Below the pieces are notes generated by a model. The model did no database searches and had not been told where the DNA came from. It saw only the letters and a program-made list of their open reading frames with translations. 64,000 nucleotides of DNA from a virus, in IMG/VR virus record IMGVR_UViG_3300043775_002158, positions 1 through 64,000 of that record. One strand, 5' to 3'. Positions within the stretch are counted from its first letter, which is position 1, and each line of letters opens with the position of its first letter. This document shows positions 44,060 through 63,841 of the stretch, piece by piece. Both the position numbers and the translations under genes were made by a program.

Positions 44060-44927
44060 GGCCGTATGGTTTTACATACATTCACCACCACTTTGTTTTT
44101 CTAAACAAAGAAAATAAAACTCTGAGAATACAAGTTTTAACAATCGACTTAGGAACATTATTTGTTTCTTTCCCTTTCCACAACCTTTTGAGTTGTACCG
44201 ATCAATGACGGTCAATTAGATTAACCAATCCTAAAGTCATCAGATACTCTTTTATTACTTATTACTCAACAAATCTGCCGACCTGTTTCAACCTTGCGGG
44301 TTTAGAGAACTTTCTTAAAAATCATATTGGGATTGAGTCCCTTTATGGCCGTGAACCCCTCACGACTAAGTAGTCACCTGTCTCCAATGACTGACGAACA
44401 CTTTTTCTTTTTATGTATGATTTTTATACCAAAATAAAAATTTAGTTTTCCGAATTGAGAAAGTAGTGGTTCGTCACCTAGCCAAGTTATCTTTTGAACA
44501 ACTCGATACTAAACTACTCTCTGAAGTGTCCCCACCTCCATATTTTTGGTTTCCTTCGAGATTAAACCCTTGGTAGGATTTATTCAAGGACACTAACAGC
44601 ACCACCTGTTTTTTGTCATACCTTCCATCTTACGATGCTACGGTTTTAAGACCACCATTGTATTGAATTACGCAATAATAAAGTCGGATAACTATACTTC
44701 TTACATTAATTCTATGGATTATTCTTATTGATGTTCCCATCTCAACCAAACAACTCGGATTGCTTGGTCATCCAACCCTTTCGCTACGGAGTTACCCTCA
44801 CTACTTCAGGTTAAATGATATTCCACTTGTCTACTCGAGATCTCTTTCGAAATCCGCAACTTACCCCAACCAAGGGTTTGTCACTTTATCCCACTTTCGT
44901 GGTTTATTTTATTGACTATAGACGGCC
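44060..44927 (-). ncRNA. large structured ncRNA (~870 nt), probably GOLLD-class
   Basis: No credible ORF; higher GC; ends pair (5' GGCCGT / ACGGCC 3'); GNRA hairpins (CCAC-GAAA-GTGG, CC-GCAA-GG); own promoter (44979-44986), leader and terminator; size and tRNA-proximal phage context fit GOLLD. Confidence 0.7.
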
Positions 44928-45026
44928 AATATTTTTATTCAAAGAACATTATCTTTTGGGTTATTCACCCTTCTTTTACAAAGATAAGAAATGTTTTCTA
45001 ATATTCAAAATATTTTTCAAAGTTTT

Positions 45027-48552: not shown

Positions 48553-48582
48553 TGTCAAAGAACCACTTATTTTACAAAGGTA
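48553..48582 (-). promoter_or_regulatory. promoter (-7 TACCTTTG) and boxA-like leader GTTCTTTGACA of tRNA operon
   Basis: TAnnTTTG at 48575-48582; GTTCTTTGA also in the large-ncRNA leader (44939-44947). Confidence 0.65.
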
Positions 48583-48669
48583 ATAAATATATATGAATAT
48601 ACAAAATTATCTTAAAAATATTTTATAATCAATTATGAATCAATGTGATAAGAACTGATATTTATCAAT

Positions 48670-49185
48670 ATGACAAAAATAAAAGGACTCTCTCTCCTTT
48701 TATGTACTTTGTTCTTGGCATTCTCTTCATTTGCTCAGGACACACAAAAAGTGTACATATCTGGCGTTGAGAACAAAATTAAAATCGGACGTATGACGTC
48801 TAACCGAAACTTAGCTTTCGGAGTTAAAAACATTTTTGAAGAAATTTTACAGGATAAGGACTTCACAATCGTAGAGGTACGTAGTGAGGCTGACGTTTTA
48901 TTAAACGTTGATTTATTATTTTTTGACGTTAATAAAACTAAAAGAAACGTTTCAGTATTCCATTCTAATGTTGAAGAAACATTGGTAATAATGAAAGGTA
49001 CTATTACCGACAAATCAGGAAAAAAATTAAAAGAGGTGGTGGCCGAAGAATCAAGTTCAGAAATTTCTACATCAACGTTAATCACTGACGAAGGAAGTGG
49101 ACAAATAAACCAACAAGCATTGTCTTCCGCAATTAAGAAGACATGTGTTTTACTTGTAGATAAAATATTTTTAAATAAGAAATGA
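48670..49185 (+). CDS. exported CsgG-like/LptE-like alpha-beta protein
   Basis: Signal peptide SFA-Q; layout (LAFGVKNIFEEIL...ALSSAIKKTC.LLV) parallels 58128. Confidence 0.55.
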   Translation: MTKIKGLSLLLCTLFLAFSSFAQDTQKVYISGVENKIKIGRMTSNRNLAFGVKNIFEEILQDKDFTIVEVRSEADVLLNVDLLFFDVNKTKRNVSVFHSNVEETLVIMKGTITDKSGKKLKEVVAEESSSEISTSTLITDEGSGQINQQALSSAIKKTCVLLVDKIFLNKK

Positions 49186-50831
49186 AAAAACTAACATTAT
49201 TAATGGGATTATTTTTATTAATGTCCCTATCATCATTTGCCCAATTAACAATTAACCAATCTATAACTCCAACTACAGGTTTAAAAGTGGGAGATACATT
49301 AACGGTTAAATATACAATTAATAGAGGGGCAACAACACCTCGTTATTTTTGGTTAAGATACTCTTTTAATAATAAAGCATTGTCAATGGTGTCAAATAGT
49401 ACCACTTTTACACAAGGCAGTTCAACACAAACATTTTATACAGGTTGGGATAATTACAAATTTACACCGGCAGCAAATATTGTGGATACACAATTATATG
49501 CACAATATCAAGTTACACCTTGGGGATATGAGGTAAATTCTGATTGGAATGTTGGACAATTAACAATTCAAAGAGCCGACGCTTCAATTAATGGTGACAT
49601 TGCCACACAAAAATTTGTATTAAAAGACCAAAACACATATAATAATATTCATAAATTAGATTTGGCATATTCAATTAATGCAACAGATGAGTATATTTCA
49701 CCAATTACAAGAAGTTCAACAAACATATCTTTAACCAATGTGGTAGGTAACACATCTCAATTCAAAGTTAGAGTATTATTTCCACAAGGATATACAATTT
49801 CCGACCACAATGTTCAATTGATGAGATTAAAAACAGATGGTAGTGGTGATATTGATTGGTCACAACAACCAATCGCACAAAAAGCATTGGATGCAAGTGG
49901 TGAGGTAATATTCACATCGGGTGTTAAAGTCGGTGATAGTGTTGGTGTATTTGTATCTCCCGCTTCCCAAAAGACTTGGATGAACAACGTAATCACAGTT
50001 TCAGATGCATATAAAGCATTCTTAGGACACTCTCAAACTGATATTAGTGGAACGGCAAACTTCTTTACAAGACCTGTTTTAGAAAGAAAAATAGGTAATG
50101 TAACAAAAAACGATATGACATTTAACGAATCTGACTCATATAATTTATTTGCACACGTAATTGGACAAGATGTATCGGTAAACGCATTTATCCCAACATC
50201 AACTTCAACTTCTTGGAGATGGCATAGTGGTTTATTGAATCAAAGTTGGTTAGATGGTGTTACTAAGAATAGAGTATACATTACGGCTCCATCACAAACT
50301 GTTGATGCAGTATTTGCGTGGGGTGGTGATTTAAACTGGTCACACTCATCTCATCCTGACACAATTGCAACTAAAATTACACAAGGTAATTTCACAAACT
50401 CAATAAACGATAACAAATATCAATCATTCTCAGTAAAGTCGATGTCATATACTCAACCTACATTTGAAAAGGTAACTTTAGGAATTAACTCTACTTTGGA
50501 AAATGGTAAAGTTGTATTAACTACTACATTGACAAAAGAAGGATTGGCAGGTTTACAAGTTATAATGAATTATGACGAAAGTAGATTGACGTTGGATAAT
50601 GTAATATTTGATGCGGGAAGTACGATTACAAACTTCTCAACTCATAAAGATGGTAGATTGACATTTGGATCTATTGATCAATTAAAAACATCAAGAATTA
50701 AAGTAGGAACACCGTATAAATTAATTTTCACTCCTAAAGTTCAATTAACAAATACTGCCGGTTTATTCTTCTTTGTATTGGCGGATGCGGTTGATGGATT
50801 GGGTAAGAAAGTTGATTTGACAATAGAATAA
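49182..50831 (+). CDS. exported protein: cohesin/Ig-like + dockerin-like + cohesin-like domains
   Basis: Signal peptide; KVGDTLTV N-domain; ITVSDAY...GNVTKNDMTFNESDSY; LAGLQVIMNYDESRL...GRLTFG. Confidence 0.6.
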   Translation: MKKLTLLMGLFLLMSLSSFAQLTINQSITPTTGLKVGDTLTVKYTINRGATTPRYFWLRYSFNNKALSMVSNSTTFTQGSSTQTFYTGWDNYKFTPAANIVDTQLYAQYQVTPWGYEVNSDWNVGQLTIQRADASINGDIATQKFVLKDQNTYNNIHKLDLAYSINATDEYISPITRSSTNISLTNVVGNTSQFKVRVLFPQGYTISDHNVQLMRLKTDGSGDIDWSQQPIAQKALDASGEVIFTSGVKVGDSVGVFVSPASQKTWMNNVITVSDAYKAFLGHSQTDISGTANFFTRPVLERKIGNVTKNDMTFNESDSYNLFAHVIGQDVSVNAFIPTSTSTSWRWHSGLLNQSWLDGVTKNRVYITAPSQTVDAVFAWGGDLNWSHSSHPDTIATKITQGNFTNSINDNKYQSFSVKSMSYTQPTFEKVTLGINSTLENGKVVLTTTLTKEGLAGLQVIMNYDESRLTLDNVIFDAGSTITNFSTHKDGRLTFGSIDQLKTSRIKVGTPYKLIFTPKVQLTNTAGLFFFVLADAVDGLGKKVDLTIE

Positions 50832-50834
50832 TTT

Positions 50835-53423
50835 ATGAAGAAACTATTAGTAGTATTATTTTTATTTATATCATTTTTAGGGTTTGGTCAGTCGGTTTTG
50901 GCACCAGACCCTAAGTCATTTATTGTTAATACCACAGGACAAGATGCAAGTGGGTTTGAGTTAACTGGATTTAATTCAACCGCAACTTTATTAGCATCGG
51001 TGAGTTTAGTATCACCACCAGCAGGAACAACATTCTATTTAAACACTTACACAGGTCTAACCGCAGCAAGTGGTTTCAATATGATTGGTAATAAAACTAA
51101 ATTGGTGTTTACCGGAACAATGGCAAATATCAATACGGCATTGGCATCATTAAAAATTAACACAGGTTCTATTTCGGGTGATATTGTCATATCAGTCGCA
51201 GCAACTATAAATCCAACTGGTTTCTTTTACAATGGAACAAACGGACACTTTTATAGACCAATATCAACAGGAACAAGCTATACGGGTGCAAGAGCAGCGG
51301 CATTAAATACTACATTTAAAGGACAGACTGGATATTTAGTAACAATAACTTCGGCAGATGAAGATGCGTTTGTATTTAATAATGTACCACAAACAAACAT
51401 TTGGTTTGCACTAACGGATGAAGAAACAGAAGGCCAATGGAAAATTGATGCTGGTCCTGAAAAGGGAACTTTAATCAAAACATCAAACGGACAAACTGCG
51501 GGTAATATACAAGGACAGTACAATAACTGGGCACCTGGTGAACCAAACAATAGTGGTAACGAAGATTATGCGGTAACAAAATGGAACGGTTCTCAATGGA
51601 ATGATTTACCGAATGGATTTAGTTGCCCTTATGTAATTGAATATGGAACTTGGACCAATCCTGATGATGCAACATTTACCGAATTTTATACTAACAGTGT
51701 AGTTCATTCAAACGGAGAAACAATAAAAGCATTATTCAATTTTACATTTGGTGGAGCAACTGATAAAAGTAAATTTTCAGCAAGATTATTTAATAGAAGC
51801 GATGCGACATCAACATGGGTAGCCGGTGGTTCTTATAAATCATTAAGTGGATTGGGTAAAGTATATCTTTCAAATCAAATAGATACTGCAAAGATATTTT
51901 CAACCGCAATTCAATTAACGCCGGGTACAAATGATATGACACAATTTAGTTCTGCTGATATTGGTAAGGTCTATAAACTAACAACAACTGGAGCAAGTGG
52001 TGGTGGATGGGGAACGGACATTTATACAAGTGACTCTTATATACCCGCTATGGCAGTTCACGCAGGAGTTTTAACAATCGGACAAACAAAAGAAATTTAT
52101 ATTAAAATAGTTGAGGGAAAAAGTAGTTATTTAGGTTCAACCCGTAATGGAATCACAACGTCAGAATGGGGTGGATGGGGATTGAGTTATCAATTTGTAT
52201 CTCAACCATCTTCATACAAGGCAATATCATCACCTGGCCAAGTTGAATGGTGTGTGATATATGACTACGATGCATCAAATCAAAGATATAGAGTTGGGAT
52301 TGATAAGAGAGAATTTGATGGAACCAACGTATCACCAAATAATGTATCATCACTAAAATTATTTGATTTGTGGGATGGAAATGTAACATTTGATAGTGAA
52401 GACATATATTGGGCAAATTATTGGATTAATACACCAACCCAATTTAATTTTACGGGTTCATCATTTTCATCATTTATAAGACAAGGCAATGGATTTTACG
52501 GAGTAAGTAGTGAGTTTACCTTTTCACAATTAGGTACATACAAACAACACAAAATGGAATTAAATGAATATGATAATGTACAATTAAAAACATTATATAA
52601 TAACATTGTAACAGTATCGGATGTTTATTTGGCATTTAAGGAATTATCTAATAAGGGTTTATTTGGTAATCAAAGTGGTAATGAATTTGGATATGGTATT
52701 CAATATATAAATGCAGATGTGGATGATAATGGTGTATTCAATGAAGTGGATACATATAAATTATTACAAAATTTAACGGGTGTAAATGATTTAGTTAGCA
52801 GTTATACTTTGGATAATACTATAAAAGTAATTCCAGACTCAATCTATAATTTAATTGGTAAATCAACATGGAGTTCATTTACATCATACAAAGGTAAATC
52901 ATATTCATTTAGTTTATTGGATAATGTGTTGAATTACAATTACAATTTATCTGTGAGTTGGAAAGGTGATGTGAATTTATCACATTCAGCAACACCTCCT
53001 TCAAATGGTATAACAACAATGTCGGTTAGAACATCAATGAGTACACCGATATCAAACGAAATAAATTCATCAATTATGTCCGAAATTGTGGGAGATAGTG
53101 TTTATGTATATATTACAATAGACCCATTACAACAAGAATTGGTGGGGACACAGTTTAAGTTAAATTACGATAATGATTTATTAAAGTTTAATAATGTAAT
53201 ATATAAAACAAAAGGATTACCAACTAACTATGCGACGGACAAAGGGAATTATATTAATTTAGGTTCTCTAATAACGGATGGTGGAACTTTAGATAATACC
53301 ACTGAATATAAATTATCATTTACAACAAAAACAAAGTTGGAGAATATATTCGGTTTAATTTCGGTTGGGTTAATGGATGCAGTAAACAAAAGTGGTAGAA
53401 CATTAAAAGTAATAATGAAATAA
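50835..53423 (+). CDS. exported adhesin: C-type lectin + LCCL + dockerin-like + cohesin-like
   Basis: NGHFY...GYLVTITS.DE...WAPGEPNN...WNDL; WGTDIYTSDS..AMAVHAG..YLGSTRNGI; ADVDDNGVFNEVDTY; LVGTQFKLNYDNDLLKF. Confidence 0.8.
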   Translation: MKKLLVVLFLFISFLGFGQSVLAPDPKSFIVNTTGQDASGFELTGFNSTATLLASVSLVSPPAGTTFYLNTYTGLTAASGFNMIGNKTKLVFTGTMANINTALASLKINTGSISGDIVISVAATINPTGFFYNGTNGHFYRPISTGTSYTGARAAALNTTFKGQTGYLVTITSADEDAFVFNNVPQTNIWFALTDEETEGQWKIDAGPEKGTLIKTSNGQTAGNIQGQYNNWAPGEPNNSGNEDYAVTKWNGSQWNDLPNGFSCPYVIEYGTWTNPDDATFTEFYTNSVVHSNGETIKALFNFTFGGATDKSKFSARLFNRSDATSTWVAGGSYKSLSGLGKVYLSNQIDTAKIFSTAIQLTPGTNDMTQFSSADIGKVYKLTTTGASGGGWGTDIYTSDSYIPAMAVHAGVLTIGQTKEIYIKIVEGKSSYLGSTRNGITTSEWGGWGLSYQFVSQPSSYKAISSPGQVEWCVIYDYDASNQRYRVGIDKREFDGTNVSPNNVSSLKLFDLWDGNVTFDSEDIYWANYWINTPTQFNFTGSSFSSFIRQGNGFYGVSSEFTFSQLGTYKQHKMELNEYDNVQLKTLYNNIVTVSDVYLAFKELSNKGLFGNQSGNEFGYGIQYINADVDDNGVFNEVDTYKLLQNLTGVNDLVSSYTLDNTIKVIPDSIYNLIGKSTWSSFTSYKGKSYSFSLLDNVLNYNYNLSVSWKGDVNLSHSATPPSNGITTMSVRTSMSTPISNEINSSIMSEIVGDSVYVYITIDPLQQELVGTQFKLNYDNDLLKFNNVIYKTKGLPTNYATDKGNYINLGSLITDGGTLDNTTEYKLSFTTKTKLENIFGLISVGLMDAVNKSGRTLKVIMK

Positions 53424-53446
53424 AAACAAATTAAAAAACAAAAATT

Positions 53447-54130
53447 ATGGCAGACAGAAACGGAGACGGAGTTGTTTATCATCGCTCAGATTGTGGTGAT
53501 AATTATGTAAGATGGTATGGGTTCGGTGGAGATGGACCTTGTTCGGCGTGTGATACGTGGGGACTTACCAATAAAGCAATAAGATATATTCATGACCACC
53601 CTGAAATAAATCATAGACTTGAAGATGTGGTAGGTAGAGAGTGGGATGAAGAGGTTATGCCAGTATTAACAGAGGTTTATGAAGAAGTAAAAGAAGGTGT
53701 AATAGACGCATATAATTGGGTGGACGCAAACGCTTGTAATATAGCTGTAACAGCAGCAATCTCGGCGGGAGTTGTTTACGCATTCACACCAGAACCGGCA
53801 AACCCAACAGCGGTGGCAACATCAACTACTTTATCGGCAATGGCATCAACTATTACTAATATGGCAGTTAAAGTTGCGGTAGTAGGAGAAATGAGTGAAA
53901 TTATAACAAATGGATTTTTACTAATACCATTTGTAAGTGATAGTATTGACCACACTCTATTATACAATATAATTTCAAATTGTTTAGCTAAAAGTTTAGA
54001 TTCTGCGGAGTTATGGGCAACACCAGCCGGTGTTGGTATTGCGATTGGAGCAGCAATTGCACCTGTTATTGCGGATTTGATATGTAAAAAAACTTGTCCT
54101 GAAGGATTTACTAAAGCATTTGGTGCGTAA
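53447..54130 (+). CDS. hypothetical protein with hydrophobic Ala/Gly-rich helices
   Basis: No signal peptide; Cys-containing N-domain; AGVGIAIGAAIAPVIA. Confidence 0.7.
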   Translation: MADRNGDGVVYHRSDCGDNYVRWYGFGGDGPCSACDTWGLTNKAIRYIHDHPEINHRLEDVVGREWDEEVMPVLTEVYEEVKEGVIDAYNWVDANACNIAVTAAISAGVVYAFTPEPANPTAVATSTTLSAMASTITNMAVKVAVVGEMSEIITNGFLLIPFVSDSIDHTLLYNIISNCLAKSLDSAELWATPAGVGIAIGAAIAPVIADLICKKTCPEGFTKAFGA

Positions 54131-55023
54131 TGAAAAAACTAATAACCATATTATTTTTACTTTGTGTAAGTTTTGTTACAAATGCACAAATACAAAAACC
54201 AGATACGTTACAACTATCGGCAAAAGAACTATTTGGAGAAAGTGATGATTGGAACGATGTGGGTATATTACAATCCTATGTTAATTTTTCAAAAGATGTC
54301 CTATCATCATCAAACCTTTCAATTGGTGTAATTGGAAAACAAGTATCTACAACTCTTAATTTGGGATATAATAAATCATCATTGAATGGGAAGTGGGGAC
54401 ACTCATTTGCAGCATCAATAAACCCTATTTGGAATTATTATGGTGTAGGGTATGGTCTTAGTAGAAATACCGAAAAGAGAACAACTACAATACAAACATT
54501 TTATTCTACGGACTTTGATTTCCAAAAAGATATTAACTTATCATTTATTGATGTATTCAGAACAAAAAAATGGGGAACATTCGGTTATAGTTTAACAGCA
54601 TCAAAATCATTTTGGGGAACTTATCAGGGTGAGTGGGAAGGGAAATATACGGTTGATGAAAATGGTGATTTTAAAGATTTAATATATCCAATGATACCGG
54701 CATCAAGTGAAATAAGTTATAGAGGTATGATGATGTACACTTATACATTGAAAACAAAGAGAGTAAACATCTCACCACAAATATTTGCAATGAGTGATGT
54801 ATATAAAGTATTTAAAGATGGAACTGAATCAGATTTGGCATATGTAGATGATTTCAATTTGGACTTATATTATGGTACATCTATTGATTGGAAAATAACT
54901 AAAAGATTTGTATTGAATACCAATGTTAGATATAATACAACTTGGGATAAATTAAGTGAATCAGTCGGTTATAAAAAAAGTAACCCAATAATGTTTATGA
55001 TAGGAACAAACTTTCAATTTTAA
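54130..55023 (+). CDS. putative outer-membrane beta-barrel protein
   Basis: Signal peptide TNA-Q; alternating amphipathic strands; C-terminal IGTNFQF. Confidence 0.7.
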   Translation: MKKLITILFLLCVSFVTNAQIQKPDTLQLSAKELFGESDDWNDVGILQSYVNFSKDVLSSSNLSIGVIGKQVSTTLNLGYNKSSLNGKWGHSFAASINPIWNYYGVGYGLSRNTEKRTTTIQTFYSTDFDFQKDINLSFIDVFRTKKWGTFGYSLTASKSFWGTYQGEWEGKYTVDENGDFKDLIYPMIPASSEISYRGMMMYTYTLKTKRVNISPQIFAMSDVYKVFKDGTESDLAYVDDFNLDLYYGTSIDWKITKRFVLNTNVRYNTTWDKLSESVGYKKSNPIMFMIGTNFQF

Positions 55024-55397
55024 TGAGTAAAAAAGATTTAATATCATTCATAGTAATTTATTTATTAACCACATTTGTAATATTATTTAGTGGTTGTAGA
55101 AAAACGCAGACTATTCCAACACCACCACCGATAAATAAAGAATTTTTTAATTCACCCGAAAACAACGTTAAAAATGGGGATATTATTAATTTTAATTTAA
55201 CTACAGTTGGTGTTTATACTTTGACAATGATTGATACGGTTCAAAATCAAGTTGTGACCAGAGAAAGATTTACGGGTAAAATTGGTTTAAACTCACTTAA
55301 AATATTTACAAAAACTTTACCGACAAAATACCTAAGTGTCGTTTTAAAGGATCAAAATAATCAACAGATAGGTAAAACAAGAATAATAATAAATTAA
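55023..55397 (+). CDS. lipoprotein with T9SS-CTD-like Ig domain
   Basis: Lipobox FSGC; YTLTMID...G..GLNSLKIFTKTLP..YLSVVL...KTRIIIN. Confidence 0.55.
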   Translation: MSKKDLISFIVIYLLTTFVILFSGCRKTQTIPTPPPINKEFFNSPENNVKNGDIINFNLTTVGVYTLTMIDTVQNQVVTRERFTGKIGLNSLKIFTKTLPTKYLSVVLKDQNNQQIGKTRIIIN

Positions 55398-55410
55398 AAA
55401 ATAACAAAAA

Positions 55411-55779
55411 ATGAAAAAAGTATCTCTCGTACTCTTCGGTTTGATTCTACTTGCTGGATGTAGAAAATCAGATTTTCCAACGCCACCTCAATCAGTTAGC
55501 GACGATTTAAAAATTGCTAGTTTATCAGGATTAAAATTACAAACTGCATTTGTAACAAGTGAAGTTTCAATGAACATAAAAAGTGAGACATCTCAGACTG
55601 TAACTATCAGAATCTTTGATATTGCAAATAGAGTAGTGTCTAAATCAACAAGCGACGTAAAGTCAGGTGATAATATATTGAAGATATACACTTCATCATT
55701 ACCGTCATCAGGTTATAGAATAGCAATTTACGATCGTGCCGGTAATATGTTAGGTATTACGGACTTTAATAAAATTTAA
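55411..55779 (+). CDS. lipoprotein with T9SS-CTD-like Ig domain
   Basis: Lipobox LAGC; VTIRIFDIANRVV...SGDNILKIYTSSLPSSGYRI...DFNKI. Confidence 0.65.
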   Translation: MKKVSLVLFGLILLAGCRKSDFPTPPQSVSDDLKIASLSGLKLQTAFVTSEVSMNIKSETSQTVTIRIFDIANRVVSKSTSDVKSGDNILKIYTSSLPSSGYRIAIYDRAGNMLGITDFNKI

Positions 55780-55809
55780 GATAATTATAGTATATAAAAA
55801 CACAAAATT

Positions 55810-56118
55810 ATGGCAGAAGAACAACAAGAACAATCAACCGGTGGTTCAATTAAGAATATACTTATCGGTTTAGTAAGTACCATCACATTAGGTGTGGGTG
55901 GTTGGTTTACAACAAAATTAACGGGTGGTGACGAAAAAGAAACTCCGGCACAACAAGCTGCACCTGTAATCAACATTACAAACTCTAATCAACAATCACA
56001 AGCTGCAGGAGGTAAGACTGTTATTATTAAAGAAAAGTCAACAACACCAGCACCGGCACCAAAACCAAAACCTAAAAAAGATGGTGACGAATTTAAAGAA
56101 GAGACACCAAAATGGTAG
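55810..56118 (+). CDS. single-pass membrane protein with Pro/Lys-rich tail
   Basis: ILIGLVSTITLGVGGWF; PAPAPKPKPKK. Confidence 0.7.
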   Translation: MAEEQQEQSTGGSIKNILIGLVSTITLGVGGWFTTKLTGGDEKETPAQQAAPVINITNSNQQSQAAGGKTVIIKEKSTTPAPAPKPKPKKDGDEFKEETPKW

Positions 56119-56217
56119 GTTTGGGTTTAGAGGTTGAAACTGCAACCTTAATTTTTACGATTATAATAATTGGGATGTCGATAAAGACATCCTTGGAATT
56201 GACAAAAAAAGAAAAAA

Positions 56218-56826
56218 ATGGCTGATCAACAACCACCAAGTGGATTTAAAGAATTATTAGCAAATATGATGAAACGTAGATGGTTCATCACTGCAATTGT
56301 ATTAGGGGGATTTATGATAATCATAATGGGAATATTTGGGGCAATCCTAAATAAATCCGCTATTGAAGGAGAATGGAAAGAACTTCTACTATTGTTATTG
56401 GGTGCATTTATCGGTAGTTACGGTAAAATAATCGACTATTGGTTTAGTGATACTGATAAGGATAAAATGTTAGTTCAGAAAATGGATGAAGAAGATGGTG
56501 TATCGTTGAGTAATACTAACGATGGTCCAAATACTCCAATCGTACCAATGTCAATAGCACCATTAGTGTTATCAGAATCAACCGAACAAATAACCGAACA
56601 ATTAGTTGAAACACCAAAAGTAGAAAAGAAGGGTGTTGAAATCGATGAAGATGGTGACGGTGTTATGGATGGTTTAGATTTCGATGGTGATGGTAAAATC
56701 GATGAATATTTCGCACACAGACAATGTGAACACGTTTGGGGTGACTTAGACGGTGACGGAACAGAGGAGTGTTTGAAGTGTGGTAAAGTTAAGGATGAAT
56801 ACGCAGAAATGCATATGGAAGGATAA
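56218..56826 (+). CDS. two-TM membrane protein with DxDGDG Ca-binding repeats
   Basis: Two hydrophobic helices; DEDGDG, DFDGDG, DLDGDG; CEH...CLKC. Confidence 0.7.
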   Translation: MADQQPPSGFKELLANMMKRRWFITAIVLGGFMIIIMGIFGAILNKSAIEGEWKELLLLLLGAFIGSYGKIIDYWFSDTDKDKMLVQKMDEEDGVSLSNTNDGPNTPIVPMSIAPLVLSESTEQITEQLVETPKVEKKGVEIDEDGDGVMDGLDFDGDGKIDEYFAHRQCEHVWGDLDGDGTEECLKCGKVKDEYAEMHMEG

Positions 56827-56855
56827 AATAAACAAAAGACAAAAAATAAAAAACT

Positions 56856-57104
56856 ATGAAATTTAAAGAATGGGCTATTGAACTCTTCAAAGACGAAAGA
56901 GGTTCAATTTCAGTAAAACCAGTTATTGCATTTGTAGGGGCGATGTTCCTATGTGTGACTATGATCTTAAATTCGTTCTCTCACGCGGATTTCGCCCCAT
57001 CACCTGAATTGGTGAATGCGGTGATGATTATCACGGGAATTGGGATGGGTGCCGATACGATGGATAAATTCTCTCACAAAAAGAAAGAAGAAACAGAAGG
57101 TTAA
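56856..57104 (+). CDS. small two-TM membrane protein (holin-like)
   Basis: FKDERGSIS.KP followed by two TM helices and charged C-tail. Confidence 0.6.
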   Translation: MKFKEWAIELFKDERGSISVKPVIAFVGAMFLCVTMILNSFSHADFAPSPELVNAVMIITGIGMGADTMDKFSHKKKEETEG

Positions 57105-57106
57105 TA

Positions 57107-57138
57107 TGAAGGAGGGTTTATCCCTCCTTTTTTTTTTC
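57107..57138 (+). terminator. intrinsic terminator
   Basis: GAAGGAGGG-TTTAT-CCCTCCTTT plus long T-run. Confidence 0.75.
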
Positions 57139-57161
57139 ATATATTTATTAAAAATGAATTT

Positions 57162-57368
57162 ATGAAAAATTTAAGAGATATTTTAGCTTTAAGGTTTATT
57201 CAATTAGTATTTGTATGGGTAAGTTTTGCTCTAACATTTCAGGTGTTTATGATTATAACACATTTTACCAATCCTGAATTGAGTACAAAAATAGGTAATG
57301 AAATTATGTGGAAAATAGACGGTACATTTAAAAATGATCCTGATAATATTTGGTATGAAAAAAAATAA
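57162..57368 (+). CDS. small membrane protein
   Basis: One TM helix, 68 aa. Confidence 0.65.
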   Translation: MKNLRDILALRFIQLVFVWVSFALTFQVFMIITHFTNPELSTKIGNEIMWKIDGTFKNDPDNIWYEKK

Positions 57369-57374
57369 AACAAG

Positions 57375-58118
57375 ATGACAAAAAACGAAATATTATATAA
57401 TGTCGGTTTAACCGATAAAGTATATTCAGAACAAAAAGATATTGATTTTAAAGCACAAAGGTTAAAATTAATTAAATGGATTGAAGATAAAAAATCAGAC
57501 ACACAAGGATTTGTTGCAACGAAAGATAATACAATTTATATTGTGTGGAGAGGTAGTTCTTCTAAAAAAGATTTCCAAAACGACGCCTCTATCGATAAAG
57601 TTCCTTTTATTGAAGAAGGTGAGAAAGTTCATATTGGATTTAAAACCTGTTGGGATGCCGTAAAGGATGATACATATAAAGCATTAGATATTGCACTTAA
57701 AAACTTAGGTCAAGAACATTCAATAGATAATATTGTTGTTTGTGGACACAGTTTAGGTGCGGCAATTTCTACCTTGTGTGCATATGAAATCTATTCAATT
57801 TATAAATCAAATAAAATTATATGTTGTACCATAGGTAGTCCAAGAGTTGGTAATAAAATATTCAAACAAAACTTTGATAAATCACCAATTGAATCGTTAA
57901 GGATTGTTAACAATTTAGATATTGTAACTCGTGCACCAAATATTGGATATCACCACGTTAATACCGAATTACGTATTGATAGTGAGGGTAAAGTTAAAAA
58001 ATGGATGATTGATTGGCAAAGAGTTGGTGAATATCTTAAAGCCGTATTCACAGGTAAGACTGCGAAAGATCATATGACAAATAATTACATAAGTGCATTA
58101 AATAAATGGAACCCATAA
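57375..58118 (+). CDS. class 3 lipase
   Basis: IVWRGS, VHIGF, GHSLGAA, GSPRVGN, DIVTRAP, DH.TNNY. Confidence 0.92.
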   Translation: MTKNEILYNVGLTDKVYSEQKDIDFKAQRLKLIKWIEDKKSDTQGFVATKDNTIYIVWRGSSSKKDFQNDASIDKVPFIEEGEKVHIGFKTCWDAVKDDTYKALDIALKNLGQEHSIDNIVVCGHSLGAAISTLCAYEIYSIYKSNKIICCTIGSPRVGNKIFKQNFDKSPIESLRIVNNLDIVTRAPNIGYHHVNTELRIDSEGKVKKWMIDWQRVGEYLKAVFTGKTAKDHMTNNYISALNKWNP

Positions 58119-58127
58119 AAAAAATAT

Positions 58128-58847
58128 ATGAAAAAATTATTAATATTATTAAGTGTTTGTTTAGTAAGTCTTGTTGCAAATAGTCAAACAATAGGTAAAA
58201 CTAAGACAGAGGACTTCAAGGCGGACTTTGAAAAGAAAAAGGATATAAGTACTTACTTAGATTATGACGGACCTCAAATACCCGTTCAAATCCTTAAATG
58301 TGGTATTTCTGACGAAGTATATGAGATGTATCCAGAATTAAAGGAAAAACGTGTAGGTTTAGGTGTTGCTAATATCTCTATGGAATATCTTGAGAACTTA
58401 AACAGATTTAAATTTACTGAGGACAAGACAGAAATTAAGAATCGCATGGTAAAACAATTCCAAGCATCTCAAGCCGGTATTTCTGAGAACAAATTAGATG
58501 GTCGTGGTAAAATCAATTTGGCTAAGTATTTTGTAACTATCGAGTGTTATGATTATTCGGTATCTGAAGATGAAACTATCAACCTAAAAGACGGTATTAA
58601 AGATAATATGGTTACTCGTATTGGTTTACAAGTTAGATTTACTGACGCCGAGACAGGACTAGTATTTGCAGGTTCAGGTTTAGGTGAAGCTAAGACAACA
58701 AGAGAGTTGACTTTATTATCTGATGCAACTATCGACCCAATTAAATTTAATCAATCAACCATCAGTATCTCAACTAAAAAGGCGTTAGATATTGCGGTTG
58801 CTAACATTCTTGATAGAATGATTAAAAAAGGTATTTTCACAAAATAA
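58128..58847 (+). CDS. csgG: CsgG-family (curli assembly/transport) protein
   Basis: Signal peptide; GLGVANISMEYLENLNRFKFTE...AKYFVT...IGLQVRFTDAETG...G.G.A...KKALDIAV. Confidence 0.75.
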   Translation: MKKLLILLSVCLVSLVANSQTIGKTKTEDFKADFEKKKDISTYLDYDGPQIPVQILKCGISDEVYEMYPELKEKRVGLGVANISMEYLENLNRFKFTEDKTEIKNRMVKQFQASQAGISENKLDGRGKINLAKYFVTIECYDYSVSEDETINLKDGIKDNMVTRIGLQVRFTDAETGLVFAGSGLGEAKTTRELTLLSDATIDPIKFNQSTISISTKKALDIAVANILDRMIKKGIFTK

Positions 58848-59080
58848 TGAAATACGAAGTTGTTGATATTCCACAACCGGAAAATTGTGAAAAATGTACA
58901 CCATGTCTTAGACTTAGATTAATGGAAATGGGGTTTATTACGGGAGAAAGAATTGAATTTGGAGAAAGTAGATTAGGTTTATATATGGTTAATATATTAA
59001 CCGAAAATGACCATATCTCTTCGGTGGTTGCACTTAGACAAGAAGAATTGGATAGAATATGTTTAAAAGGGGTTTTATAA
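58847..59080 (+). CDS. feoA: FeoA-like SH3 protein
   Basis: RLRLMEMGFITGERI...VALRQEE. Confidence 0.75.
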   Translation: MKYEVVDIPQPENCEKCTPCLRLRLMEMGFITGERIEFGESRLGLYMVNILTENDHISSVVALRQEELDRICLKGVL

Positions 59081-59103
59081 CCCCTTTTTTAGTATTTATA
59101 TGT

Positions 59104-59283
59104 ATGGAAAAATTTTATAGAACATATGACGATAGAGTCTTTTTTGGTATTTGTAGCGGTTTGGGGGTTAGAACCAATATCGATCCTTTAGTTTGGAGAT
59201 TATTGTTTTTTTTCTTAATTTTTTCACCGGTACCAATAATAACAGGTTATTTATTAACTACAATTTTAACTAAAAGTGTATGA
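59104..59283 (+). CDS. pspC: PspC-domain membrane protein
   Basis: Start ATG 59104; FYRTYDDRVFFGICSGLG...IDPLVWRL. Confidence 0.85.
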   Translation: MEKFYRTYDDRVFFGICSGLGVRTNIDPLVWRLLFFFLIFSPVPIITGYLLTTILTKSV

Positions 59284-60107
59284 AAAAATTTTTATTAATC
59301 GTCGGTTTAATTTTAATTTTAACGTTATTTGTTTCAATAATGTTAAACGCTCAAGTAAGTTCTTGGAGAAATAATTCACAACAAAGAACAACCGCACCAA
59401 GAATTCAACCATCAACTCCACAAAGAAATGACGTTAGTCGATGGAGAACACAAACAGAACCAATTAGACCAGGTCAACCTATTCCAAATAGACCTTTAGT
59501 GAGAAGATGGAGAGGTGGGGGTGTAAATCCATATGGATTAATGTGGGGAAATTGGGGGTGGTATCAACCATACCCATATATTTGGTACGATGATTATGGA
59601 TGGAGACATAGAAGTGTAGTTCGTGTTTATGAAAATGGAAAAAGAGATACTGTTAAAAAGGAAACATATTATACTTTAGGTATTGGACATACAAATAACA
59701 ATCAAGCTTCTTTTTGGGGTGCTGTAGGTGGTAATAAAGGATACTTTATTGTTGATTACGTTATGACCTATGAAATTGATCGCAACCAATATTTTCCAAA
59801 TGGTAAAATTAATGAAGTTGATTTTCCGTTAAGTAAAAATGACTTTTTAAAAGAGGGTACATTATATCTTGGTGGAGGTAAGAGATTCGGTAAATTAGGT
59901 GTCCATGGAATGGTTGGATTTGGAAATGAAATTATTAGATACCAAGGTAAAGATGATTTAGGTGGTATTTCATTTCCTAAATCAAATTCAAATTTTACAA
60001 CATTTAAATTTGGTATTATAAGAGATTTCAAATTCTTCACATTAAAGTTAGATAGAGACCCAATAAGAAATTACAATCAAATATCAATTGGATTGAATAA
60101 TAAGTAA
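59280..60107 (+). CDS. exported protein: Arg/Pro/Trp-rich N-region + beta-barrel-like C-region
   Basis: Signal peptide LNA-Q; repeated VS(S/R)WR; Gly/aromatic amphipathic strands. Confidence 0.6.
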   Translation: MKKFLLIVGLILILTLFVSIMLNAQVSSWRNNSQQRTTAPRIQPSTPQRNDVSRWRTQTEPIRPGQPIPNRPLVRRWRGGGVNPYGLMWGNWGWYQPYPYIWYDDYGWRHRSVVRVYENGKRDTVKKETYYTLGIGHTNNNQASFWGAVGGNKGYFIVDYVMTYEIDRNQYFPNGKINEVDFPLSKNDFLKEGTLYLGGGKRFGKLGVHGMVGFGNEIIRYQGKDDLGGISFPKSNSNFTTFKFGIIRDFKFFTLKLDRDPIRNYNQISIGLNNK

Positions 60108-61555
60108 TGAAAAAAAATCTAATTGTTTTATTAATTTTATGTTTCATAGGTTTTAAATCATATGGACAAACATTTACACAAACATTTATTGATAAATGTA
60201 CAGGTGAAGTTAAAGTTGCAACAACAACTTATATAAGTGGTAATGCATTTGTATCTTTTTATAATCAAAGTAAAACATTCACACCTTTAGAAGTCCAAAC
60301 AGGACAATTACAATTATGGTTACAAACAACTTACGCAACATATAACTCGATGGCCTGTCCAACAAATCAGGTAGTTCAACAAACAATACAAAATACAGTT
60401 ACACAGGCGGCGGCAACCGCAGCAAGTAATGCAGCATCTTCGGCGGCAAGTAATGCGGCATCTTCAGCTGCAAGTAATGCGGCAAGTTCATCGGCATCAA
60501 CTGCGGCGAGTTCGTCGGCATCAACTGCTGCGAGTTCGTCGGCATCAAGTAGTTCCGCCGCAACATCAAGTTCAAGTACAACAACATCATCTAGTAGTTC
60601 ATCTTCATCTAGTAGTTCATCTTCATCTAGTAGTTCATCTTCATCTTCTGAATCAAAGACTGAGAGTAGTTCTTCATCATCGGAATCAAAATCTGAAACA
60701 AAGAGTGAATCAAAATCTGAAAGTAAATCAGAAGAAAAAAAATCAGAAAGTAAATCAGAAGAAAAAAAAGAAGAGAAAAAGTCAGAGGAAAAGAAAGAGG
60801 AAAAGAAAGAGGAAAAGAAAGAGGAAAAGAAAGAGGAGAAGAAGAAGGAAGAAAAAAAAGATAAAAAGGAAGATAAGAAAGAAAAAAAGAAAGGAGGAGT
60901 ATTAAATCCGATGTTAATTGCCTCAGATTATACTGTTGCTCAAAATGCGGATAAAAGTTTTGGTTCTATGTTAGGGTTGGGTTGGAGTAAATCATCATTA
61001 ATGGGTGACGAATCTTTTTCAGCAAATGCAATTATATGGAGTAACCTAAAACAATTTGCGTTAGGTGGTGGATATACCAAAATGGACTTTAGTGGTGGTA
61101 AATTAAATGCCATACATTCTTATGGTGTAACAACCGCATATTTGAATGGTAATTATATGGGTTTACTTGGTTATACTTACATTAAACCACATCCTAAATT
61201 TGGAACTTACGGATACAATATAGGTGTTGTAAATTTATTCATTAAAGATGAAAAAGGTAAATTTAATTATAGTGTTGTAAGTTCAGCTGTTGCATTTTGG
61301 ACTAAACCATATTCATATTCAAAGAAACTTTCAATATCACCTCAATTATTTGTTATGTCTTCACCATTATCTTATAATACAGTTACGGGAGTAAGTATGG
61401 TTAATAGACACGCAGGATATTTGGTTGGAGGTTCGTTTGATTATAAATTAAGTAAAAGATTTGGGTTTACTTTTAATTATAGAATGAACGGATCAACTCA
61501 ACCATATAGTCCTATTTTACATAACTTCTTGATTGGTAGTAGAATGACATTATAA
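60107..61555 (+). CDS. exported protein with Ser/Ala and Lys/Glu low-complexity stalk and C-terminal beta-barrel
   Basis: Signal peptide; AASNAASS repeats, poly-Ser, EEKK repeats; amphipathic strands to C-terminus. Confidence 0.7.
   Translation: MKKNLIVLLILCFIGFKSYGQTFTQTFIDKCTGEVKVATTTYISGNAFVSFYNQSKTFTPLEVQTGQLQLWLQTTYATYNSMACPTNQVVQQTIQNTVTQAAATAASNAASSAASNAASSAASNAASSSASTAASSSASTAASSSASSSSAATSSSSTTTSSSSSSSSSSSSSSSSSSSSSESKTESSSSSSESKSETKSESKSESKSEEKKSESKSEEKKEEKKSEEKKEEKKEEKKEEKKEEKKKEEKKDKKEDKKEKKKGGVLNPMLIASDYTVAQNADKSFGSMLGLGWSKSSLMGDESFSANAIIWSNLKQFALGGGYTKMDFSGGKLNAIHSYGVTTAYLNGNYMGLLGYTYIKPHPKFGTYGYNIGVVNLFIKDEKGKFNYSVVSSAVAFWTKPYSYSKKLSISPQLFVMSSPLSYNTVTGVSMVNRHAGYLVGGSFDYKLSKRFGFTFNYRMNGSTQPYSPILHNFLIGSRMTL
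60409..60890 (+). repeat. coding tandem repeats (24-nt AASNAASS units, 18-nt poly-Ser units, 12-nt GAGGAAAAGAAA units)
   Basis: Visible directly in sequence. Confidence 0.85.
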
Positions 61556-61585
61556 AAAAATCCCCGAAGTATAAACCACGGGGAT
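61554..61585 (-). terminator. intrinsic terminator of minus-strand transcript
   Basis: ATCCCCG-12nt-CGGGGAT with A7 on + strand (U-tract on -). Confidence 0.75.
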
Positions 61586-61616
61586 ATGACAAAAAATAAA
61601 TGTACCTCTCTCCTGA
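61554..61616 (-). ncRNA. putative antisense RNA / 3'UTR complementary to start of gene 48670
   Basis: CAGGAGAGAGGUACAUUUAUUUUUUGUCAUAU can form about 28 bp with 48668-48698. Confidence 0.45.
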
Positions 61617-61642
61617 TACAATATAAATTTATTAAAGTTTTT

Positions 61643-61981
61643 TTATAAAGTCAATTCTTTATGAAGATTTAATACCTGACTACAAATTTCATAATCTTCG
61701 TTTTCTTCAAAGTAAGGTAATATGTCTCTTTTTAAAACAATCGTTTCACTACGATGAAATTCAAATTCAGTATTCCAATCCGCATCTTTAAACTTAGCTG
61801 AAAGTTTTAAAACTAAAGATTTTTTTCTTGTATTTTTAAACTCTTCAAAAATTTCAATTATTGATTTATAAATGTCTTCTTTGTTTGGTTCATAAAAACT
61901 TTTCCAATCCTTATATACTCCATTGATTATCAATTCTTTATAAGGTTTTTTTCTTCTTTTTGGTTGGTCCAAATTTTCCAT
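61643..61981 (-). CDS. hypothetical protein with UVR-like motif
   Basis: YFEENEDYEICSQVLNL. Confidence 0.65.
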   Translation of the reverse strand: MENLDQPKRRKKPYKELIINGVYKDWKSFYEPNKEDIYKSIIEIFEEFKNTRKKSLVLKLSAKFKDADWNTEFEFHRSETIVLKRDILPYFEENEDYEICSQVLNLHKELTL

Positions 61982-62046: not shown

Positions 62047-62535
62047 TTATTCGTCACCAATTGTACGATCCCATTTTGCTTTACGTTCTTCGGGGGATAA
62101 CATGTGTATTTCACTAATAGTGTGGTTAATTTGAACTCTTACACAAGTTTGGGGTAATTTACAATTCATCAAATAATTATTAATATAACCCATCATATTT
62201 GCCGCACCAATAGGGTTTGCTGAATGTACATATATCTGAGGTAATGGTATTTTTTCATTCATACTTTCACTAACCAAATAACGGCAACAATCCATACCTG
62301 TCCTTTCATTAATGTTGTTGTAATCCAACATATAATTATTTTTTACATTTGTATAATACTCAACCATCGCACCTTCACCTAAATCATGATCTAAGGATAT
62401 TAATTCAAATGTACCTAATCCATGTAATTTTATTTGTGCAACAAATTCGTCATAGTTTCTTACAACAATCCAATCTTCATCTACGGGAGTTCTTATATCG
62501 TCAAGGTATAATCTTAATCTTTTATTAATTTTCAT
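62047..62535 (-). CDS. cyclic-phosphate-processing receiver-domain protein
   Basis: LYLDDIRTP, ISLDHDLG, TGMDC, VHSANPIGA; adjacent to RNA ligase. Confidence 0.8.
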   Translation of the reverse strand: MKINKRLRLYLDDIRTPVDEDWIVVRNYDEFVAQIKLHGLGTFELISLDHDLGEGAMVEYYTNVKNNYMLDYNNINERTGMDCCRYLVSESMNEKIPLPQIYVHSANPIGAANMMGYINNYLMNCKLPQTCVRVQINHTISEIHMLSPEERKAKWDRTIGDE

Positions 62536-63595
62536 CTTTTTTAAATGGTTTTGAATATTTTGGCTTAATTAATTTCCAAATTATTTCGTCTACTTTCGAA
62601 TTATTATTATCCCACATTGCAAACATTATTGGATGTAAAACTTTTTGTTGTTTCATTACAAATTCCGCAAATTCTTTTTTGGATGGTTCGGGGTCTCTAT
62701 CACCAAATTTTCCATACCTAAAACCATCGTGTAATTTTCCTGCGGTCTCTCTTAATTGAAAACATGAATACCTTAAATCACTAATTGTTTTTTTAACCCA
62801 ATCATTAAATTCATCTGGAACTTTTTCAAGTAGTTCATCAAATGGTTTATTATCTTTTAGATATTCCCATATATCTTGATTAGATATGTTTGTTAAAATT
62901 TTATGAAGACGTTTATATTCTTCACCTTTGATTTTCATACGAAAACCATTCTTAAATTTAATTACATATCCTTCTCTATCTTTACTTATTTCTTCTTTAA
63001 GTAAATCATACGATTCACCCCAAGTCTTGTATGTCATAACAACTTCAAATCCAGAATCTTGTGTCCAAAACAAACTACTATCAGGTATTTCTTCACCTGT
63101 TTCTGTATGAATGGCACCAAGAACAACTAATTTTTCTTCACCTTTATAATCAACAACAATTCTATTTTCAGGATAAATTATTTCAAACAAATATGTGTTA
63201 TCTTTTCTCCACGATCCAATATCGTGTCTATCAAGAATTTCTTTTCCTTTGATAGCTTGTGGTGAGGTAAATGACCCACGAGTTGCCATTATCCATTCAC
63301 CTTCATAATTAAAAAGAATACCTAATGAACCATCCATCTTTTCGTAAACAACATAATCTTCATTAGGAATATCTTCTGGTTTATGTTCTTCGTAATTAAA
63401 AAATTTCTTAAATGGTCTTGCAACAATGTCACCTTTTGAATTGATAACCAACCCACGACATTGTAAAGTAATATCATCCCACAATCTTTCGTATTGAACT
63501 TTTGGTGAATAGTTCCATATAGTCAAATCTTTCGTAGGATGTGTTTGTTTGTGTAACAAACCATCATTATAATATTTTTCTAATATGTCTAACAT
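62525..63595 (-). CDS. T4 Rnl1-like RNA ligase
   Basis: CRGLV, RPFKKFFN, EKMDGSLG (motif I), FEII, EGYV, KIKG.EY. Confidence 0.9.
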   Translation of the reverse strand: MLDILEKYYNDGLLHKQTHPTKDLTIWNYSPKVQYERLWDDITLQCRGLVINSKGDIVARPFKKFFNYEEHKPEDIPNEDYVVYEKMDGSLGILFNYEGEWIMATRGSFTSPQAIKGKEILDRHDIGSWRKDNTYLFEIIYPENRIVVDYKGEEKLVVLGAIHTETGEEIPDSSLFWTQDSGFEVVMTYKTWGESYDLLKEEISKDREGYVIKFKNGFRMKIKGEEYKRLHKILTNISNQDIWEYLKDNKPFDELLEKVPDEFNDWVKKTISDLRYSCFQLRETAGKLHDGFRYGKFGDRDPEPSKKEFAEFVMKQQKVLHPIMFAMWDNNNSKVDEIIWKLIKPKYSKPFKKDEN

Positions 63596-63598
63596 AAA

Positions 63599-63841
63599 TT
63601 AGTTTAATCTTTTGTGGAAACCGATGTTGTAGGTATGTTTTAACCAATTGAGTGACAAATATATACCACATATTTTGTTTTTCCAAATAGAAACGTGAGC
63701 ATCGGGAAAACAAGTTTCAAAATAAAAATAAATAAAAGGTAAAGGATATAATGACCATTGGTTTTTTTGTAAGTTAGCGTGGAATTTCATCTTTGGTTTT
63801 GGATTTACGGACTCAAAAAACGAAATAATAAATTCACTCAT
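63599..63841 (-). CDS. hypothetical protein
   Basis: 80 aa ORF translationally coupled to upstream gene. Confidence 0.6.
   Translation of the reverse strand: MSEFIISFFESVNPKPKMKFHANLQKNQWSLYPLPFIYFYFETCFPDAHVSIWKNKICGIYLSLNWLKHTYNIGFHKRLN

Follow-up and report, generated by a model that had tools for sequence, protein, structure and literature searches.

What is the function of a short sequence that occurs twice in a phage genome, once over the start of the first gene of a gene block and once in the noncoding DNA behind the last? This question was raised by a 64,000-nucleotide (nt) stretch of viral DNA, hereafter called the window, which represents the first 64 kb of a 105,374-nt IMG/VR virus record (IMGVR_UViG_3300043775_002158). 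The block comprises 17 plus-strand genes (48670-61555), located between a tRNA operon and a convergent operon for an RNA ligase, cREC_REC, and a protein of 112 amino acids (aa). An initial annotation of the window had proposed that the distal copy belongs to an antisense RNA, either a trans-acting small RNA or a 3′ untranslated region (3′UTR), which would silence the block, regarded as an acquired island, until late infection; alternatively, the two copies would be a recombination scar. Comparison with related phages makes it probable that the distal copy is part of a phage-encoded, trans-acting antisense small RNA (sRNA) whose target, the proximal copy, forms the 5′ end of the block messenger.

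The two copies lie at 48668-48698 and 61584-61614, as first annotated, and are identical at 25 of 31 positions without gaps or at 28 of 32 with one gap in each. The distal copy sits in an 87-nt spacer between the last block gene (60107-61555, plus strand) and the convergent gene at 61643-61981 (minus strand). As also proposed initially, it is found just before a minus-strand terminator, a hairpin (61560-61585) followed by seven U residues (61554-61560). The best match of this spacer in the whole 105-kb record is the start of gene 48670 (score 20; next best, 16). Plain similarity in this window alone proves nothing. We rely on predicted duplex energies, which the initial annotation had suggested comparing with those of shuffled controls, and on relatives. 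The duplex between the sRNA and the start region of gene 48670 was predicted at −31.4 kcal/mol, and none of 150 shuffles did as well with any start region (best, −28.1; mean, −20.7). Among the 125 start regions of the record, that of gene 48670 ranked first, the next reaching −22.3 kcal/mol. A duplex scan of the whole genome, as far as it is contained in this record, also returned the first gene as the best non-self site, with a lead of only 2.5 kcal/mol; the test restricted to start regions is the informative one.

On the comparative evidence, what is decisive against chance is that both copies recur in relatives, on the same strand and in the same two places, often with at least 24 identical bases. 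Six contigs that carry both copies all follow this pattern. Across relatives, the match spans 24 to 31 nt, and the sRNA/leader duplexes were predicted at −37.5 to −39.8 kcal/mol. In what follows, G000 denotes the whole record containing the window, and G001, G002, G004 to G006, and the L-numbers denote related contigs or loci.

The spacer and its flank have the predicted anatomy of an sRNA gene, with the following features:
61626-61654, minus strand: sigma-70-like promoter, with a −35 element TTGACT (61649-61654), a 17-nt spacer, a −10 element TAAATT (61626-61631), and 6 nt to the +1 position
61554-61619, minus strand: candidate sRNA gene, about 66 nt, predicted to start with a G at +1 (complement of 61619) and to end in the U tract
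61602-61619, minus strand: 5′ stem-loop and seed GUAUCAGGAGAGAGGUAC, with a predicted 5-bp stem and the loop AGGAGAGA
61586-61601, minus strand: single-stranded linker AUUUAUUUUUUGUCAU, rich in U, that can pair with the AUG and the A-rich beginning of gene 48670
61554-61585, minus strand: intrinsic terminator, made of the hairpin and U7 run described above
61643-61981, minus strand: gene for the 112-aa protein, the last of the RNA-ligase/cREC_REC operon (62047-63595), whose final codons contain the −35 element of the sRNA

The element was found in 52 IMG/VR contigs, with 34 distinct sequences, by two pattern scans of IMG/VR, and it occurs once per genome in each of the three whole records searched. 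Among relatives (19 aligned, 34 distinct), conservation begins abruptly at 61619 and extends to the terminator. The sRNA has a predicted folding energy of −18.8 kcal/mol (z, −3.6). An unbiased sample was provided by nine loci that were fetched by means of the neighboring 112-aa protein (57 to 97% identity) rather than the element itself. In these loci, a 33-nt block is almost unchanged and one flanking spacer is variable, and the hairpin on the other side of the block shows compensated substitutions. The 18 nt at the 5′ end, i.e., the stem-loop and seed, are invariant in all nine. The sole stem-loop variant, a G-to-A change in L056, L066, and L067, turns a U·G pair of the stem into U-A. The U-rich linker varies more in distant relatives.

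The terminator consists of a G+C-rich hairpin followed by a U run on the transcribed strand, as expected of an intrinsic terminator. In 18 distinct sequences of the hairpin, 98.1% of the cells are paired, and three pairs are altered on both sides. Because many of its U·G and G·U pairs would become C·A and A·C mismatches on the plus strand, the terminator is predicted to work on the minus strand only. Its U tract overlaps the stop codon of gene 60107-61555. A simple terminator scan missed this hairpin, whose loop is 12 nt long.

The putative promoter is conserved in the same manner. TTGAC and the T, A, A, and T of the −10 element (TAnAnT) are invariant in 19 sequences, and the 17-nt spacer drifts in sequence with its length constant. 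The six bases between the −10 element and the conserved block vary, and the block opens with the G complementary to 61619. In the window, TTGAC forms part of the last codons of the 112-aa gene, and in other relatives it is in another frame or lies across the stop codon; since the coding context thus differs among relatives, coding does not explain its invariance. A promoter scan found the sRNA promoter, such matches being no more frequent there than in shuffles. The promoter may be read by one of the sigma-70-family proteins of the phage, and transcripts of the RNA-ligase operon could be a further source of the sRNA, as their 3′ end.

These features support the view, at the level of sequence, that the distal copy is the 5′ part of a conserved minus-strand sRNA gene of about 66 nt. 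With a promoter and an intrinsic terminator of its own, both recognized from sequence, and without a conserved reading frame on the minus strand in relatives, it has the makings of a trans-encoded, non-protein-coding sRNA. Of the alternatives offered initially, the minus-strand RNA, its terminator, and its complementarity are thus retained; its identity as a 3′UTR only is not, given the conserved promoter, which supports an RNA gene. A scan of the window against Rfam gave no match to the element at the gathering score, and the best E value for the element alone was 0.22, far below the cutoffs. By sequence, the element therefore appears as a new RNA family of an already known kind. In 596 Gb of cellular genomes, the 18-nt seed had seven exact matches, close to the chance expectation; they were in unrelated taxa and contexts and thus give no clue to the host. 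A search of RNA runs turned up a single freshwater metatranscriptome, with 6% of the words.

Several other readings of the conserved block were dismissed. A small peptide could start at the plus-strand ATG 61587 (20 codons); against it, the bases of the block are constant and the tail and length of the frame are not. At the first position of this ATG, A, G, and T all occur, which fits peptide and non-peptide readings alike. For a plus-strand promoter in the core, inspection of (A/T/G)TGACA found no −10 element at a usable distance. A Bacteroidota-type −7 box in the linker was rejected as well, since the minus-strand TAnnTTTG fits only the variants with five U residues and would fire into the terminator, and since the tRNA operon has its own perfect promoter (48575-48605, minus strand).

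A sigma-70-family protein is clear in the phage family (Sigma70_r2, 61 to 63 bits; G001:C1:214589-214795, plus strand, and G002:C1:81755-81961, minus strand). A second, weaker sigma candidate (21 bits) is also present in this record (G000:C1:90925-91110, minus strand).

The proximal copy is positioned as would be expected of a target in a messenger leader or gene start:
48658-48666, plus strand: gene-start motif, ATATTTATC here and GTATTTATA in relatives, separated from the AUG by 3 nt; probably a phage-type promoter for the block
48668-48698, plus strand: proximal copy and putative target site, covering the start codon (48670) and the first nine signal-peptide codons of gene 48670-49185
48679-48703, plus strand: target hairpin with a 9-bp stem and CUCUCUC (48688-48694) in its loop, predicted at −7.9 kcal/mol (z, −2.2)
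48670-49185, plus strand: first block gene, 171 aa with a signal peptide; its model (pLDDT 73) has an LptE/PelC/CsgG/HpaA-like lipoprotein fold

In the record, 9 of the 10 occurrences of GTATTTATA and 32 of the 42 of TATTTATA have an ATG-started open reading frame of at least 50 aa within 45 nt, as against 14% of random positions. The motif is invariant beside the core in relatives, and two copies directly follow terminator hairpins. GTATTTATA and TATTTATA are probably a promoter class of the phage itself. If so, leaders would be very short or absent, and with the motif read as a phage-type promoter, the core would be the extreme 5′ end of the first messenger of the block. The two sequences are the reverse complement of TATAAATAC and recall the T4 late promoter TATAAATA. 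Occurrences of GTATTTATA or TATTTATA in G000 include 17412, 59092, 68686, 73175, 75009, 78326, 79088, and 104059 (plus strand) and 21701 (minus strand); the motif stands 3 to 35 nt before the AUG, sometimes right after a terminator.

The proximal copy is noncoding in most relatives, where GTATTTATA is followed by five bases, the core, an AU-rich hairpin, an 8-bp hairpin, and, 3 to 4 nt on, the AUG. The target site is then about 85 nt upstream of the AUG. The wobble and compensated pairs of the 8-bp hairpin between core and AUG are valid on the plus strand only, and the core is unpaired; by this comparison, a target that is RNA of the plus strand is supported. Pairing of CUCUCUC with a downstream GAGAG in relatives was considered and rejected, since a G-to-A change there is compensated in the 8-bp hairpin and not in the GAGAG pairing. 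The leader was remodeled in the lineage of the window: an AUG three bases past the motif opens a frame in which the core encodes the first residues of the signal peptide. The product of this first gene had no sequence match in Pfam, PHROG, or PDB. Foldseek returned HpaA, LptE, PelC, and CsgG (E values, 2e-7 to 1e-4; TM scores, 0.4 to 0.5), and it models with modest scores as a member of this fold group.

Do the RNA and this site belong together? The seed is conserved and complementary to the start region of a distant messenger. The complementarity to the start region of the first gene, which the initial annotation had claimed for the window, appears to be kept in relatives and re-made in two lineages. 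In lineage D (L077/L011), the RNA has five U residues, compared with six elsewhere, and the target has five A residues. The lineage D pair (−37.6 kcal/mol) is the best of both its row and its column in a cross table of RNAs and targets. In lineage E (G004 to G006), the −35 element, spacing, −10 element, position, and terminator are kept, and the transcribed 5′ part is a different sequence. The G004 RNA was predicted to pair with its own first gene at −24.0 kcal/mol and with the targets of other lineages at about −10, and the first block gene of G004 was the best of 60 start regions. A change from ATGACA to ATGGCA in the lineage E target is matched by UGUCAU to UGCCAA in the RNA. Gene anatomy, strand, conservation, and complementarity with its apparent co-variation all rest on sequence comparisons.

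The shape of the target is conserved too. Four target lineages have three unrelated stem sequences, and CUCUCUC is always in the hairpin loop, mirroring the AGGAGAGA loop of the 5′ hairpin of the RNA. By analogy with known antisense RNAs, this suggests a loop-loop first contact.

The divergent sRNA gene of lineage E, present in three contigs (G004 to G006), is located at 1428-1500 of L109 (minus strand), which corresponds to G004:C1 at about 10990-11095. In it, TTGACA, 17 nt, TATATT, and 7 nt precede a 5′ part of 43 nt that differs from that of the canonical RNA, and the terminator is of the same type.

A number of observations weigh against a regulatory pair. The pair in the window is imperfect (28/32), and by plain similarity 17% of dinucleotide shuffles match equally well somewhere in the record. 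Between the commonest RNA variant and the commonest target variant there are two differences (one A·C mismatch and one G·U pair), so that the co-variation is not strict. The G004 target pairs equally well with the canonical RNA and with its own (−24 kcal/mol each), and in a scan of the whole G004 contig, an internal, non-start site (−31.1 kcal/mol) beats the first gene, which comes second. Individual target hairpins are weak (z, −0.3 to −2.2). The host-type promoters of the phage are of the Bacteroidota kind, and the TTGAC/TAnAnT pattern is not otherwise enriched in the record. Homologous copies could also stay similar through common descent combined with separate constraints. It is conceivable, if unlikely, that the distal element is a real sRNA that acts on host messengers or on other phage genes; the copies would then be alike by duplication and separately kept, the proximal one as a promoter-proximal leader and signal-peptide start. 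The copies are in direct orientation and clearly homologous, the proximal core has constraints of its own, being next to the promoter-like motif and coding here, and the purine-rich seed could pair with many pyrimidine-rich sites. This account has difficulty with the joint changes seen within the RNA/target pairs of lineages D and E, with the first gene being the top start region in two lineages that have different RNA sequences, and with the retention of CUCUCUC in the loop despite unrelated stems.

Both copies might instead be same-sense sites for one protein, i.e., DNA operators or plus-strand RNA sites that mark the ends of the block, with the minus-strand terminator serving only the RNA-ligase operon. 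In favor of such an arrangement are the direct repeats on either side of the co-oriented block genes and a TTGAC/TAnAnT promoter that is not of the main type of the host. It is made quite improbable by the conservation of the distal spacer, which is patterned as a minus-strand promoter and transcribed block, and by G004, in which a new transcribed part stands between a retained promoter and terminator and again matches the first gene of this lineage in antisense and not in sense. In addition, the other core-like stretches of the record are only partial and occur at start regions inside the block.

Very improbable, in our view, is that the repeats bound a mobile or shuffled cassette, as a recombination scar or substrate. 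The model for this would be the PeSL cassettes of T4-type phages, composite terminator/promoter elements present in many copies per genome at recombinant junctions (PMC2839356, PMC4122927). The resemblance lies in short conserved noncoding repeats by a stem-loop and a promoter-like motif, bordering variable gene sets in a large phage: direct repeats of about 25 to 33 nt surround a block of accessory-looking genes whose length varies with the lineage, with a terminator hairpin next to one copy and a promoter-like motif next to the other. Unlike PeSLs, there are two copies here, sharing 25 to 33 nt, without hybrid junctions; many copies per genome were not found, nor were recombinant junctions or indels bounded by the repeats. 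Each of G000, G001, and G002 has two full-length copies and no dispersed family, the partial core-like stretches being confined to the block. The scar invoked in the initial annotation was contradicted by the flanks of the 37 exact cores in relatives, which matched in 37 of 37 cases (distal on both sides in 25, proximal on both sides in 12); hybrid junctions and empty sites were absent among them. Near-invariance is also unexpected for a scar while neighboring proteins fall to 57% identity. As for acquisition of an island, the block with its conserved ends is present in every relative whose contig extends to it, and its G+C content is not distinct (the phage has about 30% G+C). Finally, a chance resemblance of two A-rich sequences, the gene start and the spacer, could have been invoked on account of the shuffled spacers and of the many 30-nt pairs of about 75% identity in the region. 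It is already contradicted by the comparative data, namely the recurrence of the pair in many relatives and the failure of the shuffles to match any start region as well, and is hardly tenable.

If the distal copy is an antisense sRNA for the proximal one, as we favor, the following course of events can be proposed. The sigma-70-like promoter of the sRNA gene would drive minus-strand transcription up to the intrinsic terminator, and the sRNA may also arise as the tail of the RNA-ligase operon transcript. Its AGGAGAGA loop would meet the CUCUCUC loop of the target first, and pairing would then spread over about 30 nt. In the window, the duplex would cover the AUG of gene 48670 and could block initiation, lead to cleavage of the long duplex, or both. 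In relatives, an effect on stability would be more likely, because the site is about 85 nt upstream of the AUG. The most likely outcome would be reduced expression of the first transcription unit. Expression of the sRNA, its pairing with the messenger in the cell, and a repressive outcome are all inferred.

How far such regulation might reach was assessed from the other start regions of the block and from its transcription units, for which the following features matter:
55403-55428, plus strand: candidate second target, the start of lipoprotein gene 55411-55779, with AACAAAAA, then AUGAAAAAA, then GUAUCUCUC
56838-56850, plus strand: short A-rich match GACAAAAAATAAA upstream of gene 56856, weak and of low complexity
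56200-56208 and 57375-57385, plus strand: similar short A-rich matches, weak and of low complexity
59069-59100, plus strand: internal terminator hairpin and GTATTTATA, where a second transcription unit would start

The start region of gene 55411 ranked second of the 125 (−22.3 kcal/mol). Its AACAAAAA, AUG, and GUAUCUCUC echo both halves of the core, and its bases are kept in G001, G002, L005, and L006; this second start region may also be a target. The initial annotation had pointed to shorter A-rich matches at 56838 and 57375 as well. They are present, and the stretch at 56838 is identical in the distant relative G001; being of low complexity, they are weak on their own. GACAAAAAA occurs three times in the 13-kb block and four times elsewhere, counting both strands. 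Control of the whole island, as envisaged initially, is not supported: given the terminator and GTATTTATA at 59069-59100, the block would comprise at least two transcription units (48670-59080 and 59104-61555), and the 17 block genes pooled were not significantly better targets (Mann-Whitney, P = 0.07).

The last block gene of G001 (L037, 14978-15010) begins with AUGAAGAAAUAUAUUAUCUCUCUCCU, as does its counterpart in L038 (G002), and over 12 nt this start is perfectly complementary to the seed variant of G001 itself. The window has no such match at 60107.

Perfect Bacteroidota-type promoters (TTTG, 19 nt, TAnnTTTG) precede the tRNA operon, a GOLLD RNA gene, and the RNA-ligase operon, and most block proteins start with flavobacterial-looking signal peptides; from these two traits, the host is probably a member of the Bacteroidota. 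The record is rated 32% complete and related genomes reach 334 to 336 kb, so that the window belongs to part of a jumbo phage, which is an uncultured freshwater one. A fuller reading, which we put forward tentatively and would not yet bet on as a whole, is that freshwater jumbo phages of Bacteroidota encode a kissing-loop sRNA, made from a promoter that is not of the host type, as a switch on their own envelope-protein cluster, with RNA/target pairs that are specific to lineages and co-evolve. The switch would act on the first transcription unit and at least one internal lipoprotein gene. If true, this would be the first trans-acting phage sRNA known for a structural or accessory phage operon in this host phylum, and the phages would provide a natural set of orthogonal RNA/target pairs.

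Among known systems, the c4 antisense RNA of phages P1 and P7 comes closest; the sRNA would resemble it in its working without being a member of that family. c4 is 77 nt long and acts on the phage's own ant messenger (PMC12197685). Short complementary stretches around the target start region are involved, which are thought to be displayed in loops, and variants of RNA and target set the specificity between related phages (PMC12197685). The phage element would share with c4 a target gene of its own phage, pairing at the start region, display of the pairing bases in a loop, and lineage variants. The c4 gene and its target belong to one immunity operon, with c4 just upstream. Unlike c4, which belongs to the immunity region of temperate phages and is close to its target, the sRNA described here would be a separate, convergent unit, about 13 kb from its target and on the opposite strand, the target would be an envelope-protein cluster, and the window, part of a jumbo phage, shows no sign of lysogeny. 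The element did not match the c4 covariance model, and it does not share an operon with its target.

In enterobacteria, the trans-encoded sRNAs RybB, MicA, and OmrA/B combine a 5′-end seed with an intrinsic terminator and act on messengers for envelope proteins. In general terms, the phage element is similar to them, with 60 to 80 nt, a 5′ end that is the most conserved part, a U-rich stretch, and a terminator, and with start regions of genes for exported or outer-membrane proteins, possibly several (48670 and 55411), as putative targets. The differences are that pairing would extend over 24 to 31 nt, compared with 7 to 16, and that the RNA is encoded by a phage and its target is a phage gene. 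To our knowledge, Hfq-type chaperones are not the rule in Bacteroidota, the probable host phylum.

Kissing-loop and antisense RNAs offer a third comparison, with CopA/CopT and RNAI/RNAII of plasmids on the one hand and sar of phage P22 and OOP of phage lambda (PMC12197685) on the other. Long complementarity and a loop-loop first contact (AGGAGAGA versus CUCUCUC) would be shared with these, and a double-strand-specific RNase could plausibly attack the long duplex, as with OOP and cII. CopA/CopT, RNAI/RNAII, sar, and OOP are, however, cis-encoded opposite their targets and perfectly complementary by construction, whereas at the separate loci considered here complementarity must be kept by selection.

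Few phage sRNAs that regulate genes of their own phage in trans are known. Apart from one cyanophage, the phages of the reviewed examples infect proteobacteria and are in many cases temperate (PMC12197685). The present candidates come from large uncultured phages with a probable host in the Bacteroidota, a phylum whose posttranscriptional control is poorly known and whose translation does not rely on Shine-Dalgarno sequences. With a cluster of exported and outer-membrane-type proteins as the target, the timing or dosing of envelope remodeling in infection may be under RNA control. The natural variants (canonical, five-U, and G004 types) represent ready-made pairs for compensatory tests, and the sRNA family could join RNA family libraries and thus improve the annotation of jumbo phages.

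The block is about 9.5, 10.4, 13, or 14 kb long depending on the lineage. A search of the phage GenBank collection yielded no relative, the sole match being a tRNA-like sequence of 66 nt. Within the block, the frame with a PspC domain (59059-59283, plus strand) probably starts at ATG 59104 and not at 59059, since the longer frame would include a terminator hairpin (59069-59084 plus a T run) and GTATTTATA. Repeats that could be of variable length occur at 60410-60890 (plus strand) in the last block gene (482 aa): Ala/Ser and Ser-rich ones of 18 to 24 nt, followed by Lys/Glu-rich ones of 12 nt.

Beyond the block, the RNA-ligase (T4 Rnl1-like)/cREC_REC/112-aa operon has a host-type promoter at about 63657-63687 (minus strand), and this RNA-repair module adjoins a cluster of tRNA, tmRNA, and GOLLD genes; the minus strand of the window carries six tRNA genes in addition to the GOLLD RNA and the tmRNA. 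The host-type promoter of the tRNA operon, mentioned above, is perfect. The GOLLD RNA is full length (44119-44521, minus strand; Rfam RF02032, 296 bits). A perfect Bacteroidota-type promoter (TTTG, 19 nt, TATCTTTG) is found about 450 nt upstream of it, at 44979-45009, and because of this distance the GOLLD transcript seems to be much longer than the Rfam model. The phage tmRNA (41849-42247, minus strand; Rfam, 77.7 bits) has, according to ARAGORN, an unusual tag of 20 residues ending in SKVAA.

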